DNA of 14,459 nt from an uncultured archaeon (GTDB taxonomy: Archaea; Asgardarchaeota; Thorarchaeia; Thorarchaeales; Thorarchaeaceae), in assembly GCA_964590575.1 (NCBI GenBank), contig CAZPWM010000080.1, forward strand, positions 1 to 14,459, read 5' to 3'. Positions 3 to 14,101 of the stretch are shown piece after piece (position 1 is the first letter of the stretch; each line of letters starts with the position of its first letter). The position numbers were made by a program, and so were the translations under genes. The notes under the pieces are model-generated. The model was not told the DNA's origin. It ran no database searches and was given only the letters and a program-made list of their open reading frames with translations.

Positions 3-248
3 CTCTGTCCAGGTATACTTCCTCCAAAAGGGTTGAAGGACCTAGCTGATAAACTGGGACTAGACGTGAGTGTGGATGGTTTCGTTTCAATCCAATACCC
101 TGCAAGCAATCCTGTTGACACCGTTGTTCCAGGAGTGTATGTTGCAGGGTGTGCTGAGTCTGCGAAGGACATTCCAGATTCAGTAGCTGCAGGGAGTGCA
201 GCTGCGATGAGGGCGAGTATAACCCTTGCGAGAGGAGGTGAGCCATAA
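3..248 (+). CDS. hdrA: C-terminal part (5'-truncated by the window) of an HdrA-family FAD-dependent oxidoreductase, short type without C-terminal ferredoxin domain
   Basis: Frame is open from base 3 (LCPGILPPKGLKDLADKLGLDV..DGF), so the TTG at 33 is not the true start. Contains the HdrA C-terminal motif PGVYVAGCAESAKDIPDSVAAGSAAA. Stop overlaps the next start (TAATG at 246-250). Confidence 0.85.
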   Translation, partial: LCPGILPPKGLKDLADKLGLDVSVDGFVSIQYPASNPVDTVVPGVYVAGCAESAKDIPDSVAAGSAAAMRASITLARGGEP

Positions 249-1993
249 TGGGAAGTGAAGAGGAACCAAGAATTGGTGTTTTCGTATGTCATTGTGGACA
301 CAATATTGCTGGGACAATAGATGTAGAGTCTGTGGCTCGAGTTGCAAGGTACTATCCAAATGTCGTCTATACTACTGACTTGATGTTCACTTGTAGTGAT
401 GCTGGTCAGACTCACATTCGTGAATCGATTGCAGAACATAATCTAAACAGAGTGGTGGTAGCAAGCTGTTCTCCAAGGATGCATGAGCCAACCTTTCGAA
501 GAGTGGTTGAGGAAGCTGGTCTCAATAGGTACCTCTTCGAGCAGGTGAATCTTAGAGAGCACTGTAGCTGGTGCCATGCTCGCGAACCAGAAAAGGCAAC
601 CATCAAGGCTGAAGACTTGGTTCGGATGGCAGTAGCACGAGCTGCACTCCTTGAACCTTTAGAAGTGAAAACAGTTCCAGTGACACCCCACACATTGGTT
701 GTGGGCGGCGGAGTCACAGGTCTTAGAGCTGCTGTAGATATCGGCTCACGTGGATTCAAGGTAACACTCGTTGAGAAAGAATCCGAACTAGGTGGTCACC
801 TCCGACACCTCTCTACAATGTATCCCAATAACGAGAAGGCTAAAGATGTAATTGACCGGATGCTCATAGCTGCCAAGGCAGTGGAGGACATCGAGTTAAT
901 GACAGACTCAATGGTGGTTGATTTAGATGGCCATATTGGGCGTTTTGAAACCAAGATAAAGAACATGAAGACTGGTAAGACGGTCAACCGGACATTTGGC
1001 GCAGTGATTATAGCTACAGGATTCCAACCTTTCAAGCCAAAAGGATACTACGAGTACGGTAACAATCCAAACATCCTCACACTCGCGGAGTACGAGCAGA
1101 TGAAGTCTACAGGATCTGTCCTTCGAATCAGTGATGGACGACCACCAAAGAACGTCCTGTTCATTGGGTGTGTTGGGTCTCGAGAGGAGGGCAATAAAGG
1201 ACATGAGCACTGCTCGCGGTACTGTTGTACTGCTATGACTAAGGCGGCTTTGGACATCAAGGATAAAGCAGAAGAAGTGATGGTCCTCTATGATGATTTG
1301 CGAACTTTTGGAAGGGGTCATGAAGAGATTTACAGAAACGCCAGGCACGAGCATGTAATGTTCTCAAAGTTTGCTCACACAAAGAAACCCAAGGTCTGTC
1401 TTGCGGACGATAAAATAGTCGTTAAATGGAAGGATGTGCTGTCAGACTCCTACTGTGAGTTTGCGACCGACATGTTGGTCTTAACAACAGCAATGGTTCC
1501 ACCTGCAGGAGCGGATGAGGTAGGGAAGATGTTCAGTCTGACCCATTCGGGCGATGGTTTCTTCAATGAGGAGCATATCAAACTAGCACCTCTCACAACA
1601 CATACGGCAGGAATCATGATTGCAGGTGTTGCCCAATCTGCAAAGGATGCCACAGATAGCGCGACGCAAGGAAGCGGAGCCGCCGCAAAAGCTACGTCTC
1701 TGATGGCTCGCAAAAATGTTGAGATTGAATCAACGGTGTCATGGGTTGACGAAACGTTATGTTCCTCCTGCGCTACATGTGTCCAAGCGTGTCCCTATGG
1801 AGCCATAGAGTTGACTGGAAATAAGGATCCACCTGTCGCATTCGTTACGGAAGCTAAGTGCCACGGGTGCGGGACCTGCGCAGCTGCGTGTCCAAGTAAT
1901 GCAATAACCATGCGACATTCCACGGATGAGCAGATCTTGAGCATGGTGGAAGCATTCCTGATGCCTACGACCTATCAAGAAGGAGGCGAATAG
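248..1993 (+). CDS. hdrA: Heterodisulfide reductase subunit A-like flavoprotein (FAD, Fe-S)
   Basis: RIGVFVCHCGHNIAG, VVVASCSPRMHEPTF, VNLREHCSW, FAD motif VVGGGVTG, GCVGSR...CSRYCC, and two C-terminal CxxCxxCxxxCP ferredoxin motifs (CSSCATCVQACP, CHGCGTCAAACP). GGAGGTGA ribosome site upstream. Confidence 0.95.
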   Translation: MGSEEEPRIGVFVCHCGHNIAGTIDVESVARVARYYPNVVYTTDLMFTCSDAGQTHIRESIAEHNLNRVVVASCSPRMHEPTFRRVVEEAGLNRYLFEQVNLREHCSWCHAREPEKATIKAEDLVRMAVARAALLEPLEVKTVPVTPHTLVVGGGVTGLRAAVDIGSRGFKVTLVEKESELGGHLRHLSTMYPNNEKAKDVIDRMLIAAKAVEDIELMTDSMVVDLDGHIGRFETKIKNMKTGKTVNRTFGAVIIATGFQPFKPKGYYEYGNNPNILTLAEYEQMKSTGSVLRISDGRPPKNVLFIGCVGSREEGNKGHEHCSRYCCTAMTKAALDIKDKAEEVMVLYDDLRTFGRGHEEIYRNARHEHVMFSKFAHTKKPKVCLADDKIVVKWKDVLSDSYCEFATDMLVLTTAMVPPAGADEVGKMFSLTHSGDGFFNEEHIKLAPLTTHTAGIMIAGVAQSAKDATDSATQGSGAAAKATSLMARKNVEIESTVSWVDETLCSSCATCVQACPYGAIELTGNKDPPVAFVTEAKCHGCGTCAAACPSNAITMRHSTDEQILSMVEAFLMPTTYQEGGE

Positions 1994-2368: not shown

Positions 2369-3394
2369 CTATTCGTCAGCTCGCATCTTCACAATTTTCC
2401 CTTGAGCACTCTTTGGAATCATCAAGTCACGTATTTGTTCAGCCAAGGGTTCTATGTCCTCAGGGTCGTAATTTGACATCACAATGAAAGTATAACCCAG
2501 TTTGAAGAACTTGATATAGAGTGCAGTCAGTCCCGGTGCTCCTCCAGCCATGAAGATTGAGCCTGGTTGCTTATTTGGGTCTGCATCTAGTGGCATATAG
2601 ACCCTCTTGGAATACTCTGAGTTCAGGAGAATTTCCTGTGCAACTGCTTTATCAAAAAGAGCCCAGTCCCTTACTGTTGAATATCCCCCACCAGCAGGAC
2701 TACCACGACTTCCAATTACAAAGATGTTACTTCTTCTATTGGTTGGATTGATTGAGCAATCTGGCATATGCCTAGTATATCCAGTTGCTAGGTTCGGTGT
2801 TACTGAATCCACTTCATAATGATGCGACTCTTTCATACCTGCTGGTTTGTAGATATTCTCTTTGACATAATCATAGTAATCCATTCCTGAAACTGCCTCA
2901 ATGATTAATCCAAGCACAACATAACCAGCATTGCTGTAGTTCCACTTCTCTCCAGGTTCAGATACGAGTGGGTCCTCGATGAAGAATGGAACGAAGTCTG
3001 ATACCTTTCTGAGTTTTCCTAGAGCCGCATCAAACTTGTCACCAAAGTAGTTTCCCATTCCTGATGTGAATGAAATCAGATGTCTGATCTTCACCTTTGA
3101 TGCGATGTCTTCTCTGAAATCTGGAAGATGTTTTCCCACTAGGTCATCTAAGTCCAGCTTGCCTTTCTGAACAAGTTGAAGGATAGCCACTTTTGTGACG
3201 AGTTTATTCAATGATCCAATGTTGAATTTCGTGTAAATCCTATTGGGTACATTGAATCTCTTGCACGCAAAACCATAAGCTCTCTCGAATATCACCTTGT
3301 CCTCTTTTGCTACAAGAACTGTGCCTGAGAACTTGTCCTTCTCAACTTGTTCTTCAAGGATTTTCTGAAACTTATCTGCATCGAATTTTGACAC
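2369..3394 (-). CDS. Serine hydrolase, beta-lactamase/AmpC-like (D-peptidase) family, cytoplasmic
   Basis: FNIGSLNK (SxxK), WNYSNAGY (YxN), IRHLISFTSG, PAGGGYST, MAGGAPG at the third-motif position. GTG start with GGAGGA upstream. No signal peptide. Confidence 0.92.
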   Translation of the reverse strand: MSKFDADKFQKILEEQVEKDKFSGTVLVAKEDKVIFERAYGFACKRFNVPNRIYTKFNIGSLNKLVTKVAILQLVQKGKLDLDDLVGKHLPDFREDIASKVKIRHLISFTSGMGNYFGDKFDAALGKLRKVSDFVPFFIEDPLVSEPGEKWNYSNAGYVVLGLIIEAVSGMDYYDYVKENIYKPAGMKESHHYEVDSVTPNLATGYTRHMPDCSINPTNRRSNIFVIGSRGSPAGGGYSTVRDWALFDKAVAQEILLNSEYSKRVYMPLDADPNKQPGSIFMAGGAPGLTALYIKFFKLGYTFIVMSNYDPEDIEPLAEQIRDLMIPKSAQGKIVKMRADE

Positions 3395-6563: not shown

Positions 6564-6947
6564 TTAGTTGTGTGTTGCGCCCTCTTGAGCCCAAGTAGGA
6601 GCTCTCTCAACTGTTGGTATTTCTTCTATTGAATGGAAGATTCTCTTGCCTTCTTCCTTTGCTCGATTATACTCCAGGAGAGCTCCCTTGGATTCAGCCA
6701 AGAGAAAGAGTGCATCGCAATGGTCGACCCAGGGTGCGTGCCAGTTCATGTAGTCTACCCAGTCCATATCAATCTCGAGCTCCCGTGCTAGTATGTCTGG
6801 CCAGTGGGTGAGATGAGGGATATATGGAAAGTGACCTTTCTTCCAGATCTTGAGACCTGCTTCCATAGCCTTTCGGACATTTTCTTCAATCTCTTCTATG
6901 GTCGCCCCAGTATACGGTCCTGCAACATAGATCTTCATACTCTTCAA
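6564..6947 (-). CDS. DUF4406/DUF1937-like protein (nucleoside 2-deoxyribosyltransferase-like fold); alternative ATG start at 6938
   Basis: KIYVAGPY...ENVRKA...GHFPYIPHL...CDALFLLAESKGALLEYNRA is characteristic of this family. Confidence 0.8.
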   Translation of the reverse strand: MKSMKIYVAGPYTGATIEEIEENVRKAMEAGLKIWKKGHFPYIPHLTHWPDILARELEIDMDWVDYMNWHAPWVDHCDALFLLAESKGALLEYNRAKEEGKRIFHSIEEIPTVERAPTWAQEGATHN

Positions 6948-7201
6948 TCACAATCACCCGGTGATTTCTGCTGAATCATAACTCTCCTATATATTACAAT
7001 GCGGTACTCATTGATGAGTGAAATATCCCTTGTACACAAGTTCTTAAGGGAACGCCCCAGAAAAAAAGTGCAGGTATACCAAGCACGAGGCGCCTTCGAG
7101 ACGTGGTCTGGTGAGGGGTCAACACGATTACACACACATACCCACTGAAGAACACCCTGGTTTTGTTTGACCTGCTATTCGCATAAGCGAGAGAATATAC
7201 G

Positions 7202-7783
7202 ATGGGATATCAAGAACGTGAGCCTATTGAGGCTACAGTGGCTGAATTAAAGCCAAGAATGAAGAATGTAACCATATCTTTCAAAGTGGTTGCTATTGGT
7301 GAAGAACGTGAGGTAACATCCCGCAACGATGGGGTGACTCACCGCGTTGCTGACGCAACAGTTGGCGACTCAACTGGATGTGTTCAAGTACCATTATGGG
7401 ACTCCTCTCTAGATGAAGTTACAGCAGGTACAACCTACACTCTGAAGAACGGATATACAGGCCTGTTCCGTGGAAACCTTCGACTCAACATCGGCAAGTT
7501 TGGTGAACTAGCTGAAGCTGAGGAAGCCATTGAAGAGGTCAACGAAACAGTTGACATGAGTGCCGAAGAACACGAAGATGACCGTCGTCGAGGCGGTTAT
7601 GGTGGTCGCAGTGGCGGCTACGGTGGTAGGGATCGTCGTGGCGGTGGTGGCGGCTACGGAGGCGGCGGCGGCTATGGTGGCGGCGGCCGAGGTGGCGGTG
7701 GCTACGGAGACAGCGGCGGTGGCGGCTACGGTGGTAGAGATCGTCGTGGCGGTGGCGGCGGCGACAGACGACGTAGATACTAG
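7202..7783 (+). CDS. ssb: Single OB-fold single-stranded nucleic-acid-binding protein (archaeal SSB/RPA-like) with a long Gly/Arg/Tyr-rich C-terminal tail
   Basis: VAELKPRMKNVTISFKVV...VADATVGDSTGCVQVPLWD...LKNGYTGLFRGNLRLNIGKFG matches archaeal single-OB SSB. Acidic linker, then a GYG/RGG tail at residues about 128-193. Confidence 0.9.
   Translation: MGYQEREPIEATVAELKPRMKNVTISFKVVAIGEEREVTSRNDGVTHRVADATVGDSTGCVQVPLWDSSLDEVTAGTTYTLKNGYTGLFRGNLRLNIGKFGELAEAEEAIEEVNETVDMSAEEHEDDRRRGGYGGRSGGYGGRDRRGGGGGYGGGGGYGGGGRGGGGYGDSGGGGYGGRDRRGGGGGDRRRRY
7611..7762 (+). repeat. 44-nt direct repeat (7611-7654 and 7719-7762, 2 mismatches) within the GGN-rich SSB tail
   Basis: gtggcggctacggtggtag(g/a)gatcgtcgtggcggtgg(t/c)ggcggc occurs twice, 108 nt apart, encoding GGYGGRDRRGGGGG. 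Confidence 0.9.
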
Positions 7784-7806: not shown

Positions 7807-7856
7807 TATACGGGCACCTGATTACGGGTGTCCGTGTATCTTCCTTTTTTTATTTT
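7807..7856 (+). terminator. Stem-loop plus U-tract terminator after ssb
   Basis: TATACGGGCACCTG-ATTA-CGGGTGTCCGTGTA gives a 14-bp stem with 3 G-U pairs, followed by TCTTCCTTTTTTTATTTT. Lies between convergent genes. Confidence 0.8.
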
Positions 7857-8134
7857 GACTCAATCCGAGAGAGAATCAGAGAAACCATTGCCTTGGAGGC
7901 ATTAGGTGGAGTAAAATTATAGTCCTCCTTTTCTCGCTGTAACTTGTAGTTGATACTGGCTTTCTTGAATTCAACTTGTATTCTCTCAAAGTCCTTCTTG
8001 GTCGTTCGAAGACCGAAACAGTATCTCGAGAGTATTTCATGCCTTTTGGCTGTGAGCCAGAGTTCTTTCAATAGAACTGATTCTCCAGCCTCAGCTACGT
8101 TTATTGTTATCCCTTTATGGACTGAGTAATTCAC
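7850..8134 (-). CDS. Hypothetical 94-aa protein, possibly a truncated remnant
   Basis: GTG start overlaps the upstream TGA (GTGA) and the ORF fills the gap to the ssb terminator. No recognised motif. Confidence 0.45.
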   Translation of the reverse strand: MNYSVHKGITINVAEAGESVLLKELWLTAKRHEILSRYCFGLRTTKKDFERIQVEFKKASINYKLQREKEDYNFTPPNASKAMVSLILSRIESK

Positions 8135-9342
8135 CGTTGAAATCGTCGTCTAAGAAATACAATTGGTAAGGGGAGAATTAAGATGACTAAAATTGACACA
8201 TTGATGATTACTAATGGGTCAATAGGAACCGGTCCTTCTGATGCTGGTATCACATACTCGATCACAAAGTAATCTGAGGGATGCCAGTCCTCATCTTGAA
8301 TATCTCCTGTGAACACTACAACGATGTCTTCTTCTGGTAGAACGAAGATCTTCTGTTCATAATGACCAGTTGCCTCATAAAATGTGTACCCTGGGATTCC
8401 CCACCATGTGTATCCATAGTTGTACCACGAACCAGTGTCATAATACATTTGCGATGAAACATTGACCCATTCTGAAGAAACTACCTGGGTTCCATTCCAG
8501 TTTCCCTCGTTTAGATAGAGAAAAGCAAAACGAGCCATGTCCCTTGGTTTTAGGTTCAATCCTCCGCCACATCCATATTGCAAGTTTGCAAAAGGCTTCC
8601 ACCAAGTGAACTGATTAATTCCAATGGGGTTGAATAAAAACTCCTCTGCAAAATCAGCGACTCGATATCCTGTTGTCTGTTCAATGACTCCTCCTAGGAG
8701 CTCAATACCCCCGGAGTTATACTCCCACTGCTCTCCTGGGTCACATGCCATTGGTCTGTCTAGGACATACTCCCACATGTCTGGACTATCATACATGGCA
8801 AATAGATCATTTGCTGGATCTGTATAAGGAATATCTACTTCATGAAACTCAAGCCCTGTTGACATTGTCAAACAGTGGTACAGAGTGATATTCTCCTTTC
8901 TTGGATCCCAGTTATCAATTGTATAATTCGGGAAAAAGTCGAGGATTGGTTGACTCACATTGTCGATATAGCCCATATCTATGGCTATCCCGATGAGAGC
9001 TGACATGAAGCTCTTTGTGCATGACTGAATTGTATGCAACATGTATTGTGTCCAGTATTGGTAGTATTTCTCATACACAATGTAACCATTCTTGATTACA
9101 ATTACCGAATCCACTTCGATTTCATTTTCAGTAATTGTTTCATCAATACGATTGAGAGTGTTAGAGTCCAATCCCTGTTCTTCGGGAGTTGTGTTTAACC
9201 ATGCTACCGTTGGCCAATAGTCCCTGACACGTTCTTCTTGCGCCACTGAATATCCTTGAGTTGGAACTACTTGTATCATCAGTAGAATTGCACAAATTGC
9301 AATGATTGACACAATATGATTATCTCTTTTCATTTGATTCAC
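8131..9342 (-). CDS. Exported, C-terminally membrane-anchored serine hydrolase (beta-lactamase/NylB-like family), paralogue 2; alternative ATG start at 9333
   Basis: N-terminal hydrophobic signal, YWPT..W...TPEEQG, HTIQSCTKS (SxxK), LTMSTGL, WEYNS (YxS), LKPRDMARF, YGYTWW, ATGHYEQ, C-terminal TM followed by RRRFQR. Confidence 0.92.
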   Translation of the reverse strand: MNQMKRDNHIVSIIAICAILLMIQVVPTQGYSVAQEERVRDYWPTVAWLNTTPEEQGLDSNTLNRIDETITENEIEVDSVIVIKNGYIVYEKYYQYWTQYMLHTIQSCTKSFMSALIGIAIDMGYIDNVSQPILDFFPNYTIDNWDPRKENITLYHCLTMSTGLEFHEVDIPYTDPANDLFAMYDSPDMWEYVLDRPMACDPGEQWEYNSGGIELLGGVIEQTTGYRVADFAEEFLFNPIGINQFTWWKPFANLQYGCGGGLNLKPRDMARFAFLYLNEGNWNGTQVVSSEWVNVSSQMYYDTGSWYNYGYTWWGIPGYTFYEATGHYEQKIFVLPEEDIVVVFTGDIQDEDWHPSDYFVIEYVIPASEGPVPIDPLVIINVSILVILILPLPIVFLRRRFQR

Positions 9343-10264: not shown

Positions 10265-11503
10265 TTATGTTAACTCCTGGAATTGATTGCTGATTCTGAG
10301 TCTATACTTGGGCACTGCGTAAAAGATAGGTAAGAAGATGGCACCAATAACTACTAAGTTGATTGCATTTGCGACCATCACTTGTCTGGGAATCTTGTTA
10401 ATTGCTGATGGGACGATGTAATCGTATAGAAGCCATGGCTGTAGGTCTGACTCATCTGGTGGAACACTCGAGGTGAAAACCACGACCATGTCCAAGCTTG
10501 GGACTACAAAGATAAACTGTCCTTGATAACCCCGGGCAGTATAGGCATTGGCGATATCGTTAGTGTAAGTCCACCACTGATACGAATACCCCGTGAGGAT
10601 GTCGAATGGTCGAAGAGTAGCCTTTGATTGTTGTACCCATTCTTCAGGAACGATTTGTTCGCCATCCCATGTTCCGTTGTTCAGATAGAGATATCCAAAT
10701 TTCGCCATGTCTCGGGGAAGCATTTCTACTCCTCCTGAAGCCCAATAGAAACCTTGGTTGTCCGTAGGCCAAAAGACATCCGCAGGTGATATGCCAAGGG
10801 GAGTAAACAGCTTTTCCACAGCATAGTCAAAGAGTGAGGTTCCCGTTGCCTCCGTAATGATTGCTCCTAACAGATTAGTTGCTCCTGAGCAGTAGACCCA
10901 TCTTTCACCTGGATCATACTGCATAGGTAAATCAAGAATGTACTGCACATTATCGCTTGCAAACCACATTTGGTAGTTGCTATTCAGTGGGGAATTGTAA
11001 GGTTCAGTCCATTCATCCCACTCTAGTCCTGCAGTCATAGTTAATAGATGTTCAAGGGTTATCGATTGTTTTCGCTCGTCAAGATTCGCGATTGTTCGGT
11101 TCGGTAGGAGATCAACTAACTTACTATCTACACCCTCAATGTAACCTTCTTCAATCGCAATTCCCACAAGCGCTGAAGTGAAGCTCTTTGTGCATGAGTG
11201 AATGATGTGGCGCGTTTCGGAATTATAGAATCCGGGATATTCCTCAAAAACCAGGTAGCCATTTTGTACAATCAATATGGAGTCAATGAGCAGACCAATG
11301 TTATCGATATACTCCATCATATCATCCAATAGATGCTGGTTCATCCCCTGTTCTTCAGGGGTGGTGTTTAGCCACCCATCTGTCGGCCAATAGTCTCGAA
11401 CCACATCGGTTTGTGCAAGTGAATAACCCTGACCTGGAACAATCGGCATCATCAAGAGAACTATGACAATGCCGATGAGTGACGCAGTCTTTTTCCAGAG
11501 CAA
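10265..11503 (-). CDS. Exported, C-terminally membrane-anchored serine hydrolase (beta-lactamase/NylB-like family), paralogue 1
   Basis: Signal-like MLWKKTASLIGIVIVLLMMPIVPG, YWPTDGWLNTTPEEQG, HIIHSCTKS (SxxK), LLTMTAGL, WVYCS, MLPRDMAKFGYLYL, ARGYQGQ, C-terminal TM. TTG start. Confidence 0.92.
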   Translation of the reverse strand: MLWKKTASLIGIVIVLLMMPIVPGQGYSLAQTDVVRDYWPTDGWLNTTPEEQGMNQHLLDDMMEYIDNIGLLIDSILIVQNGYLVFEEYPGFYNSETRHIIHSCTKSFTSALVGIAIEEGYIEGVDSKLVDLLPNRTIANLDERKQSITLEHLLTMTAGLEWDEWTEPYNSPLNSNYQMWFASDNVQYILDLPMQYDPGERWVYCSGATNLLGAIITEATGTSLFDYAVEKLFTPLGISPADVFWPTDNQGFYWASGGVEMLPRDMAKFGYLYLNNGTWDGEQIVPEEWVQQSKATLRPFDILTGYSYQWWTYTNDIANAYTARGYQGQFIFVVPSLDMVVVFTSSVPPDESDLQPWLLYDYIVPSAINKIPRQVMVANAINLVVIGAIFLPIFYAVPKYRLRISNQFQELT

Positions 11504-13226: not shown

Positions 13227-13580
13227 TCATCGAGTAAATTGAAGCGATACATCTCGATCATCTGAAGCCTTGATTCGTGCCATCTCGGTAGAAAGCTCCG
13301 CATCTTCCCAGATCCCTGGGTTGATTGGATCTCCATACTTTAAGTATTGAATCAGACGTGCTTCATCGTAGACCTTGCTTGCTGCTGCAACTCCCCCGGG
13401 AAGAGCTAATACTATAGCCCCAGGGACAAGAGCAACTAGATACAGTAGACCTACTGTACCCGCAATGGCGGCAAGTATCCTGACCGCACGGCCAGCAATG
13501 ACTCGATTGAGAGAGAAACTAAGGGTTTCCTGAGGAGTGACATTGACTGTTTCCTTTACCTTGATTCGTGCATTGTACAT
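13227..13580 (-). CDS. Hypothetical 117-aa membrane protein, paralogue A
   Basis: Ungapped alignment with 13748-14101 (32/117 identities by hand count). Central hydrophobic stretch. GTGGTG ribosome site. Confidence 0.8.
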   Translation of the reverse strand: MYNARIKVKETVNVTPQETLSFSLNRVIAGRAVRILAAIAGTVGLLYLVALVPGAIVLALPGGVAAASKVYDEARLIQYLKYGDPINPGIWEDAELSTEMARIKASDDRDVSLQFTR

Positions 13581-13747: not shown

Positions 13748-14101
13748 TTATCGAGTATAACCTTGGAGGGTACCAGGTCTATAATGAGACCTCAGACGAG
13801 CCATCTCTGTTTCTGACTCAACATCGTCCCACTTGCAATCCTCAGTGGTCATATTGCATCGCACCCATTGAATCAGTTCCGTCTCGTCCCGGATCTTGGA
13901 TATCAGGGTAACTTCAGCTGGAAGCACAAACAACACTAACCCTGGTAGAACTGTAAGAGGGAGCAACATCAAACCCGCTAGTGCAATGCAGATTGCACAG
14001 CGAATTGACCTCCCAAAGATGAAGCGTTTCAGGAGCGGCTTCGGCACCACAGCATACCGCAGTTGCTCCGGAACAACTTTAGAACGCTGAAACTTATCCA
14101 T
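13748..14101 (-). CDS. Hypothetical 117-aa membrane protein, paralogue B
   Basis: Same length and motifs as 13227-13580 (GR..R, PG.....LP, SK..DE..LIQ, W.D.E..TEMAR, terminal [F/Y]TR). GTGGTGA ribosome site. Confidence 0.8.
   Translation of the reverse strand: MDKFQRSKVVPEQLRYAVVPKPLLKRFIFGRSIRCAICIALAGLMLLPLTVLPGLVLFVLPAEVTLISKIRDETELIQWVRCNMTTEDCKWDDVESETEMARLRSHYRPGTLQGYTR

Follow-up and report, generated by a model that had tools for sequence, protein, structure and literature searches.

A single-OB SSB with a long Gly/Tyr/Arg tail, encoded in the window analyzed here (the whole stretch of DNA, 14,459 nt), probably serves as a stand-alone chaperone of single-stranded nucleic acids, in the role that cold-shock proteins fill in bacteria. 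RNA-chaperone function is known for the SSB-1 type, a name taken from PMC10684826, through work on Saccharolobus (PMC10684826; statements cited here by identifier rest on the accessible parts of each source). Several groups of observations support the same reading here: firstly, family membership, retained binding aromatics and a separate RPA1-like gene, with no cold-shock domain (CSD) or RRM found in the genome; secondly, five close paralogs with graded tails, tandem copies, and a promoter-like element and terminator of the gene's own; thirdly, a conserved long leader like that of csp genes, the residue pattern of the tail, varying gene neighbors and the tally of Csp and SSB over Asgard genomes. 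The reading is weakened by the ordinary folding energy of the leader, by the lack of thermometer-like melting in silico, by a trend of tail Gly with temperature that independent pairs do not support, and by a Csp/SSB complementarity that comes mostly from one family. We take the host to be an Asgard archaeon, a condition the first-pass annotation had left hanging, because the close homologs that bear names are mostly Ca. Thorarchaeota.

That annotation had identified the protein as a single-OB SSB, and profile searches agree. PF21473 matches one single stretch, residues 16–103 (47.5 bits against a cut-off of 24), and searching the PDB returned Sulfolobus SSB as the best match (E 9e-14), with hSSB1 also matched (E 3e-10). 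Aligning the protein to Sulfolobus SSB placed W66, Y85 and F89 at its W56, W75 and F79, so that the base-stacking aromatics are kept; W56 and F79 are binding residues of the Sulfolobus protein (PMC10684826). PRK06461 was the top NCBIfam match, below its equivalog cut-offs, an ESM Atlas search returned PF21473 clusters only, and Pfam detected neither a PF00313 cold-shock domain nor an RRM in the SSB itself. As judged from its sequence, the fold is the single OB of the Sulfolobus-SSB/hSSB1 family. The acidic stretch after the OB domain (Table 1) had been called a linker; its acidity stands, but it is no plain linker, since its first part is conserved, and S120 within it is invariant among 55 diverse homologs.

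Table 1. Coordinates of the SSB gene and of the elements around it, as positions in the window.
Feature	Positions	Strand	Basis
Putative promoter: conserved element, then TATA-like TTCTTAAGG (7041-7049)	7031..7049	+	conserved position
Conserved folded 5' leader, ~130 nt	7070..7201	+	identity, pairing
Closing helix P1, 5' arm GCAGGT	7070..7075	+	pairs with 7170-7175
Closing helix P1, 3' arm ACCTGC	7170..7175	+	pairs with 7070-7075
Small hairpin, 3' arm over Shine-Dalgarno-like stretch before ATG	7179..7190	+	pairing in relatives
SSB-1-type single-OB SSB gene (PF21473), 193 aa	7202..7783	+	ORF, profile and PDB matches
OB domain, residues 10-108	7229..7525	+	alignment to Sulfolobus SSB
Acidic segment, residues 104-127, net -12, partly conserved	7511..7582	+	composition, homolog alignment
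Gly/Tyr/Arg low-complexity tail, 66 aa, net +11 (residues 128-193, 7583-7780), plus stop codon (7781-7783)	7583..7783	+	composition
Terminator-like 14-bp hairpin, then T-rich run	7807..7856	+	hairpin; similar downstream in relatives

Scanning the 91%-complete assembly with PF21473 returned seven matches, five of which are close paralogs (52–100% identity). Their OB domains are near-identical and their tails graded: two are long (50–66 aa), one has ~10 residues, one has 4 and one paralog has none. Of the other two matches, one is a divergent single-OB paralog (C5:37501-38025, minus strand) that has a basic tail ending in a Gly-Tyr-Cys motif and is not matched by the leader model described below; a paralog of this kind was also seen in P0169 and P0253. 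The other, on C54 (L007:952-1740), joins a GNAT acetyltransferase to a C-terminal Ssb-like OB in 263 aa, and weak PF21473 matches in frames of 263–315 aa recur among genus mates. Each of 24 genus mates has 5–13 PF21473 matches, more distant OB proteins included, and in six of these genomes tandem SSB copies lie ~800 nt apart.

A separate RPA1-like gene on C8 encodes 598 aa with multiple OB folds and a Zn motif, a layout that the SSB, with its one OB, does not share. Its presence disfavors a replicative role for the SSB, and on this point the earlier suggestion that the protein is no plain replication SSB is probably right. Scans of the 91%-complete genome detected neither a CSD nor an RRM, and no stand-alone TRAM either (TRAM occurs only within a 446-aa frame); a CSD was detected in 0 of the 24 genus mates. 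Tallying 151 Asgard genomes, with a strong SSB match set at E 1e-40 or better, revealed a CSD in 30 of 31 genomes without an SSB match, 7 of 22 with a weak match and 28 of 98 with a strong one. The resulting complementarity between Csp and SSB is suggestive only: a single family makes up 25 of the 31 genomes without an SSB match, and f12, f17 and some of f5 have CSD and SSB together. CSD genes were present in 29 of 29 genomes of family f9, often in tandem (e.g. G119:C4, G098:C74, G076:C42, G109:C2), with SSB-1 mostly missing; f12 and one f1 genus likewise have CSD copies in tandem.

Upstream of the gene, the promoter-like element stands at one and the same distance from the leader in loci of the genus and of the family, and the DNA beyond it is unconserved; 7031–7049 is on these grounds a putative promoter. 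The leader has a median identity to the window of 0.85, against 0.53 further upstream (0.51 when shuffled) and 0.525 at fourfold sites (28 loci). In helix P1, 3 of 7 pairs have changed in a compensatory way; the small hairpin, whose Shine-Dalgarno likeness was judged from upstream hexamers of the genome, is paired in 93% of cells and changes on both sides at 1 of 4 pairs. Over 35 leaders the two elements together are paired in 87% of cells, with both-side changes at 4 of 11 pairs, whereas slid controls gave 28–42%. A second set of 23 leaders, fitted to the model and sharing one member with the training set, was 86% paired, but its covariation was weaker and was matched by 45 of 500 shuffles. 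The interior of the leader has no fold shared among relatives, and its single-sequence folding energy is ordinary (z −0.73). Helix strength of at least 15 also occurs in 19% of 332 control leaders, and the case for the leader therefore rests on conservation.

Searching the host genome with the leader model returned five matches, one before each close paralog and none elsewhere, and all 32 of the matches checked (34 rows, 2 without a locus) lay upstream of SSB genes, which led us to reject a wider regulon. The model matches 16 of 22 genomes of the same family (f1) and, under strict filters, 0 of 98 other Asgard genomes. Rfam gave no match, and a known RNA family was rejected, the only two hits (E 2 and 2.2) being due to chance. 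An RNA thermometer found no support in silico, where the Shine-Dalgarno stretch opens only gradually between 4 and 55 °C. A tie between long leader and long tail was rejected, as Bathyarchaeia leaders are short (~30 nt) and near tail-less paralogs retain the leader. Leaders of f12 differ in sequence, yet align with a closing helix of their own; those of f19, f2, f18, f17 and f21, different again in sequence, seemingly also open with a helix that closes before the start codon. RNA-library contigs from three studies match the window without mismatch; their first positions are 7079, 7083 and 7086, and they extend into the coding sequence, while a fourth contig begins at 7127. These contigs cover 7079–7707, and their runs were chosen on the SSB gene, so that uncovered flanks are uninformative; contigs cannot reveal a transcription start, which we predict near 7070. 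They point, weakly, to transcription of the leader.

What the protein may do is best approached through its studied relatives. Saccharolobus SSB is dispensable and is induced by cold; it melts dsRNA and can stand in for the missing Csp proteins of csp-less E. coli (PMC10684826), and Sulfolobus SSB binds ssRNA like ssDNA (PMC5346138). Equal binding of ssRNA and ssDNA together with RNA melting is reported for crenarchaeal SSB-1 but not for the Heimdall member (PMC10684826), the sole Asgard SSB-1 tested, which is tail-less, comes from a host with a Csp, prefers ssDNA, and showed neither chaperone activity nor complementation of csp loss (PMC10684826). By analogy with the Saccharolobus homologs, for which this is shown, the OB domain here would stack with bases of single-stranded RNA or DNA and melt RNA structure in a passive manner. 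The tail would add flexible, multivalent RNA contacts through ~6 Tyr and ~13 Arg on variable Gly spacers and through its RRRY tip; the acidic segment might, more speculatively, hold the basic tail when nucleic acid is absent; and replication would be left to the separate RPA1. The shared folded leader would probably set the amount of protein translated, with possible feedback on it by the SSB protein itself. The tail's role is uncertain because Saccharolobus SSB without its tail shows nearly unchanged binding (PMC10684826) and because cold adaptation by cyanobacterial Rbp1 does not require its Gly-rich tail (PMC9333190). The RNA chaperone proposed by the first-pass annotation is thus likely, but the function was already shown for the SSB-1 family in Saccharolobus, and it is seated there in the OB domain and not in the tail (PMC10684826).

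The tail itself consists of 38 Gly (58%), 15 Arg, 7 Tyr, 4 Asp and 2 Ser, with 0 Gln and 0 Asn; apart from Gly it is almost exclusively Tyr and Arg. We predict from this composition that it is flexible. The earlier counts of six GYG and four RGG and the DRRRRY end were reproduced, and the repeated DRR units number three (four with D127). In 20,000 shuffles that kept composition, GYG and DRR proved more frequent than composition explains (P(GYG ≥ 6) = 0.008; P(DRR ≥ 3) = 0.0002); P(RGG ≥ 4) was 0.83, and the RGG count, therefore explained by composition alone, was rejected as a signal. A six-frame scan of the 3.4-Mb assembly for at least four [GS]Y[GS] plus RGG motifs within 60 aa returned two frames, the SSB gene at 7202–7783 and its paralog on C19.

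Tails of at least 30 aa are present in 118 of the best 120 of 569 homologs, and an acidic C-terminal tip in 0 of these 118. Dropping 13 rows (truncated, frameshifted or ending otherwise) left 105 complete tails, close kin and hence non-independent, which contain 6.1 ± 0.8 Tyr, 13.5 ± 1.4 Arg and 27 ± 7.5 Gly. The Gly count (range 12–53) follows tail length (rho 0.83), and Tyr and Arg counts hardly track it (CV 0.14 and 0.10); Arg occurs 1414 times against 0 Lys, and Tyr 638 times against 4 Phe. This pattern suggests that selection has kept the set of stickers fixed and left the spacers free. Val/Ala-rich tail readings in P0082, P0124, P0177, P0189, P0231, L119 and L134 are what a frameshift in the G-rich repeat would be expected to give, and such database copies are probably assembly errors.

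The same residue pattern could instead mean that the main selected job of the tail is to form RNA–protein condensates in the cell, the SSB being an archaeal RNA-granule scaffold, an explanation to which we give a small chance. Constant stickers on variable Gly, with Tyr chosen over Phe and Arg over Lys, agree with it and fit a published residue ranking (10.1101/2021.01.01.425046), as does charge laid out in blocks (−12 in the acidic segment, +11 in the tail); human hSSB1, moreover, enters stress granules and uses a disordered tail to phase-separate with RNA or ssDNA (PMC11403420). However, the 66 aa of the Thorarchaeal tail include no more than 7 Tyr and neither Gln nor Asn, and they carry about +0.17 net charge per residue, where net charge is a factor that lowers self-association (10.1101/2021.01.01.425046). 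The Tyr/Arg choice also suits plain RNA binding, the same leader stands before paralogs with almost no tail, and a search of the accessible literature returned nothing on such condensates in Asgard archaea. Coacervation with RNA in vitro is likely, and the chaperone interpretation does not need it; condensate formation by the SSB is plausible with RNA only, given the net charge of +11. A wider proposal, in which the Thorarchaeia hSSB1 homolog is a multi-copy Csp/GRP equivalent whose Tyr/Arg tail leads to cold or stress RNA granules and whose protein melts the shared leader, strikes us as improbable in its entirety; were it true, archaea would have an RNA-condensate system that regulates itself, and an SSB1 that forms condensates would be older than eukaryotes.

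It is similarly unlikely that the protein acts on the ssDNA side, in repair, R-loops or transcription, like hSSB1 or like Sulfolobus SSB with RNA polymerase, its tail and especially the RRRY tip docking a protein partner. Such docking would agree with the RRRY end of 98 of the 118 tails and with the binding of RNA polymerase by the Sulfolobus SSB tail (PMC5346138); loss of Saccharolobus ssb induces DNA-damage genes, the Saccharolobus protein is most active on DNA/RNA hybrids, and the Heimdall SSB prefers ssDNA (PMC10684826). Against this, gene neighbors vary between SSB loci and none was recognizable as a replication or repair gene among the frames shown (the Pfam scan covered those within the window), some paralogs have tiny tails or none, and the multi-copy expansion, long leader and partial Csp complementarity fit the RNA side better.

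The first-pass annotation had further regarded the tail as eukaryote-like and of note for an Asgard host, and had set it against acidic-tipped SSBs. A genome scan gave 587 confirmed loci, of which the best 80 (71 titled Bathyarchaeia or Bathycorpusculum) were ranked by closeness to a single query and so form one clade. Among these best 80 of 587 loci, the tails have medians of 60 aa, 6 Tyr and 3 GYG, 63 carry an aromatic-GG-RDRRG unit and 77 end in Arg and an aromatic residue. A claim of Asgard specificity fails because this non-Asgard clade carries nearly the same repeats. Drawing 101 Thermoproteota genomes (83 matched; 70 loci read, 60 with tails) gave tails with a median of 27 aa, at least 5 Arg in 58, at least 3 GYG in 2 and an acidic tip in 4. 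Tyr-rich tails in ordinary archaeal SSBs, which the annotation had named as the finding that would count against it, therefore exist in the Bathyarchaeia, with the same length, Tyr count and unit; this speaks against the annotation only in part, since GYG-rich forms are rare (2 of 60) in the Thermoproteota draw. With acidic tips in only 4 of 60, the tip is a mark of a subgroup and not of the family; the contrast drawn earlier is weak, and the Saccharolobus tail carries RGG just before its tip. In 63 tails from 17 other Asgard families, all have at least 5 Arg, none an acidic tip, and nine at least 3 GYG (families f4, f12, f19 and f22). Comparing these sequences, an Arg/aromatic tail is the family norm, with long Gly/Tyr forms in several lineages. 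In family f16 (L089, L090, L091), a tailed SSB is directly followed by a nearly tail-less paralog.

A quick, weakly resolved OB tree sets the Thor and Bathy groups apart and needs seven changes of the Gly-rich state. Tail Gly correlated with a thermophily proxy over 40 Asgard loci (rho −0.61) and 18 families (rho −0.58) and not over 62 Thermoproteota/Bathy loci (rho −0.09), and eight independent pairs gave no support to a temperature trend. That Gly and Tyr were expanded by neutral slippage of repeats, starting from a short ancestral tail of Arg and aromatics, is very improbable: Gly follows length, its rich state changes seven times on the tree and several database copies are frameshifted within the repeat, but Tyr and Arg are nearly independent of length, the tails exclude Lys and Phe and keep a fixed terminus, and Gly is encoded by a mixture of codons (GGC 22, GGT 14, GGA 2). 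Our search of the accessible literature found nothing about the leaders of Asgard SSBs or about Gly/Tyr/Arg tails in them, and the accessible parts of PMC10122647, PMC12993045, PMC13734099, PMC12680538 and 10.1101/2020.07.20.212902 describe no such tail.

Among the closest known systems are the Saccharolobus/Sulfolobus SSBs (SsoSSB, SisSSB; PDB 1o7i, 2mna, 7wcg), which have the single OB with its binding aromatics and a flexible tail including RGG, in hosts where no Csp was found. The Thorarchaeal tail differs in being longer and Gly/Tyr-rich, with a basic RRRY end in place of an acidic tip, and its host differs in having a long folded leader, RPA1 and five close paralogs in place of one gene. 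SSBs of Bathyarchaeia (Ca. Bathycorpusculum and kin) resemble it in the tail features listed above for the best 80 of 587 loci; they form a separate OB-tree clade, use some Phe for Tyr, which goes with their median of 3 GYG, and occur as one close copy per genome (4 genomes checked) behind a leader of ~30 nt. Human SSB1 (NABP2, SOSS-B1; PDB 5d8f, 4owt) has a homologous single OB and a disordered tail, binds RNA and ssDNA and shows tail-dependent phase separation (PMC11403420); according to the accessible accounts it differs in that its condensation is redox-controlled through cysteines and that it works in the SOSS complex.

FUS and hnRNPA1 have prion-like domains that are long, rich in Gln, Asn, Ser and Tyr, and weakly charged. 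The likeness to them proposed earlier holds for the GYG and RGG motifs and for the use of Tyr over Phe and Arg over Lys, but does not extend to a tail that is short (66 aa), strongly basic (net +11) and poor in Ser (2), with far fewer stickers, in a protein without an RRM or a Q/N-rich prion-like domain. The tails of GRP7, CIRBP and RbpA have a Tyr/Arg make-up. These glycine-rich RRM chaperones (cyanobacterial Rbp1/RbpA, plant GRP7, mammalian CIRBP) are described, in the accessible parts of the sources, as cold-related proteins with one RNA-binding fold and a Gly-rich tail; they use an RRM and the SSB an OB fold, and with no RRM found in the genome the likeness is one of analogy and not homology. 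The CspA family comprises small, multi-copy OB-fold chaperones under structured 5' UTR control (PMC10684826); the SSB differs in lying outside PF00313 and in a leader that Rfam does not match. By analogy, then, the SSB would work like a glycine-rich RNA chaperone while belonging to the SSB-1 family, and not to FUS, GRP or Csp.

If the chaperone interpretation is true, many archaeal genes annotated as "SSB" or "replication factor A1" would encode the main RNA chaperone, and cold-shock RNA chaperoning in Asgard archaea would be carried out by either Csp or expanded SSB-1 paralogs. Graded tails on a near-identical OB within one genome provide a test set for the effect of a Tyr/Arg tail, and the conserved leader is a candidate cis-regulatory RNA of archaea that is open to testing and has no catalog entry.

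The window holds several other genes. A DUF4406 gene (6564-6947, minus strand) is divergent from the SSB gene and recurs at 3 of 36 loci, which gives no fixed partner. Three PF00144 serine-hydrolase (beta-lactamase-family) genes lie within 9 kb (2369-3394, 8131-9342 and 10265-11503, minus strand), two of them with hydrophobic ends, and a homolog is near the SSB gene in 10 of 36 loci. A protein named HdrA-like from its Pfam domains (FAD and 4Fe-4S; 248-1993, plus strand) is followed by a small winged-helix gene. Two adjacent, seemingly paralogous 117-aa ORFs (13227-13580 and 13748-14101, minus strand) have a hydrophobic middle and no Pfam match, and a frame resembling them occurs near the SSB genes in L019 and L020.
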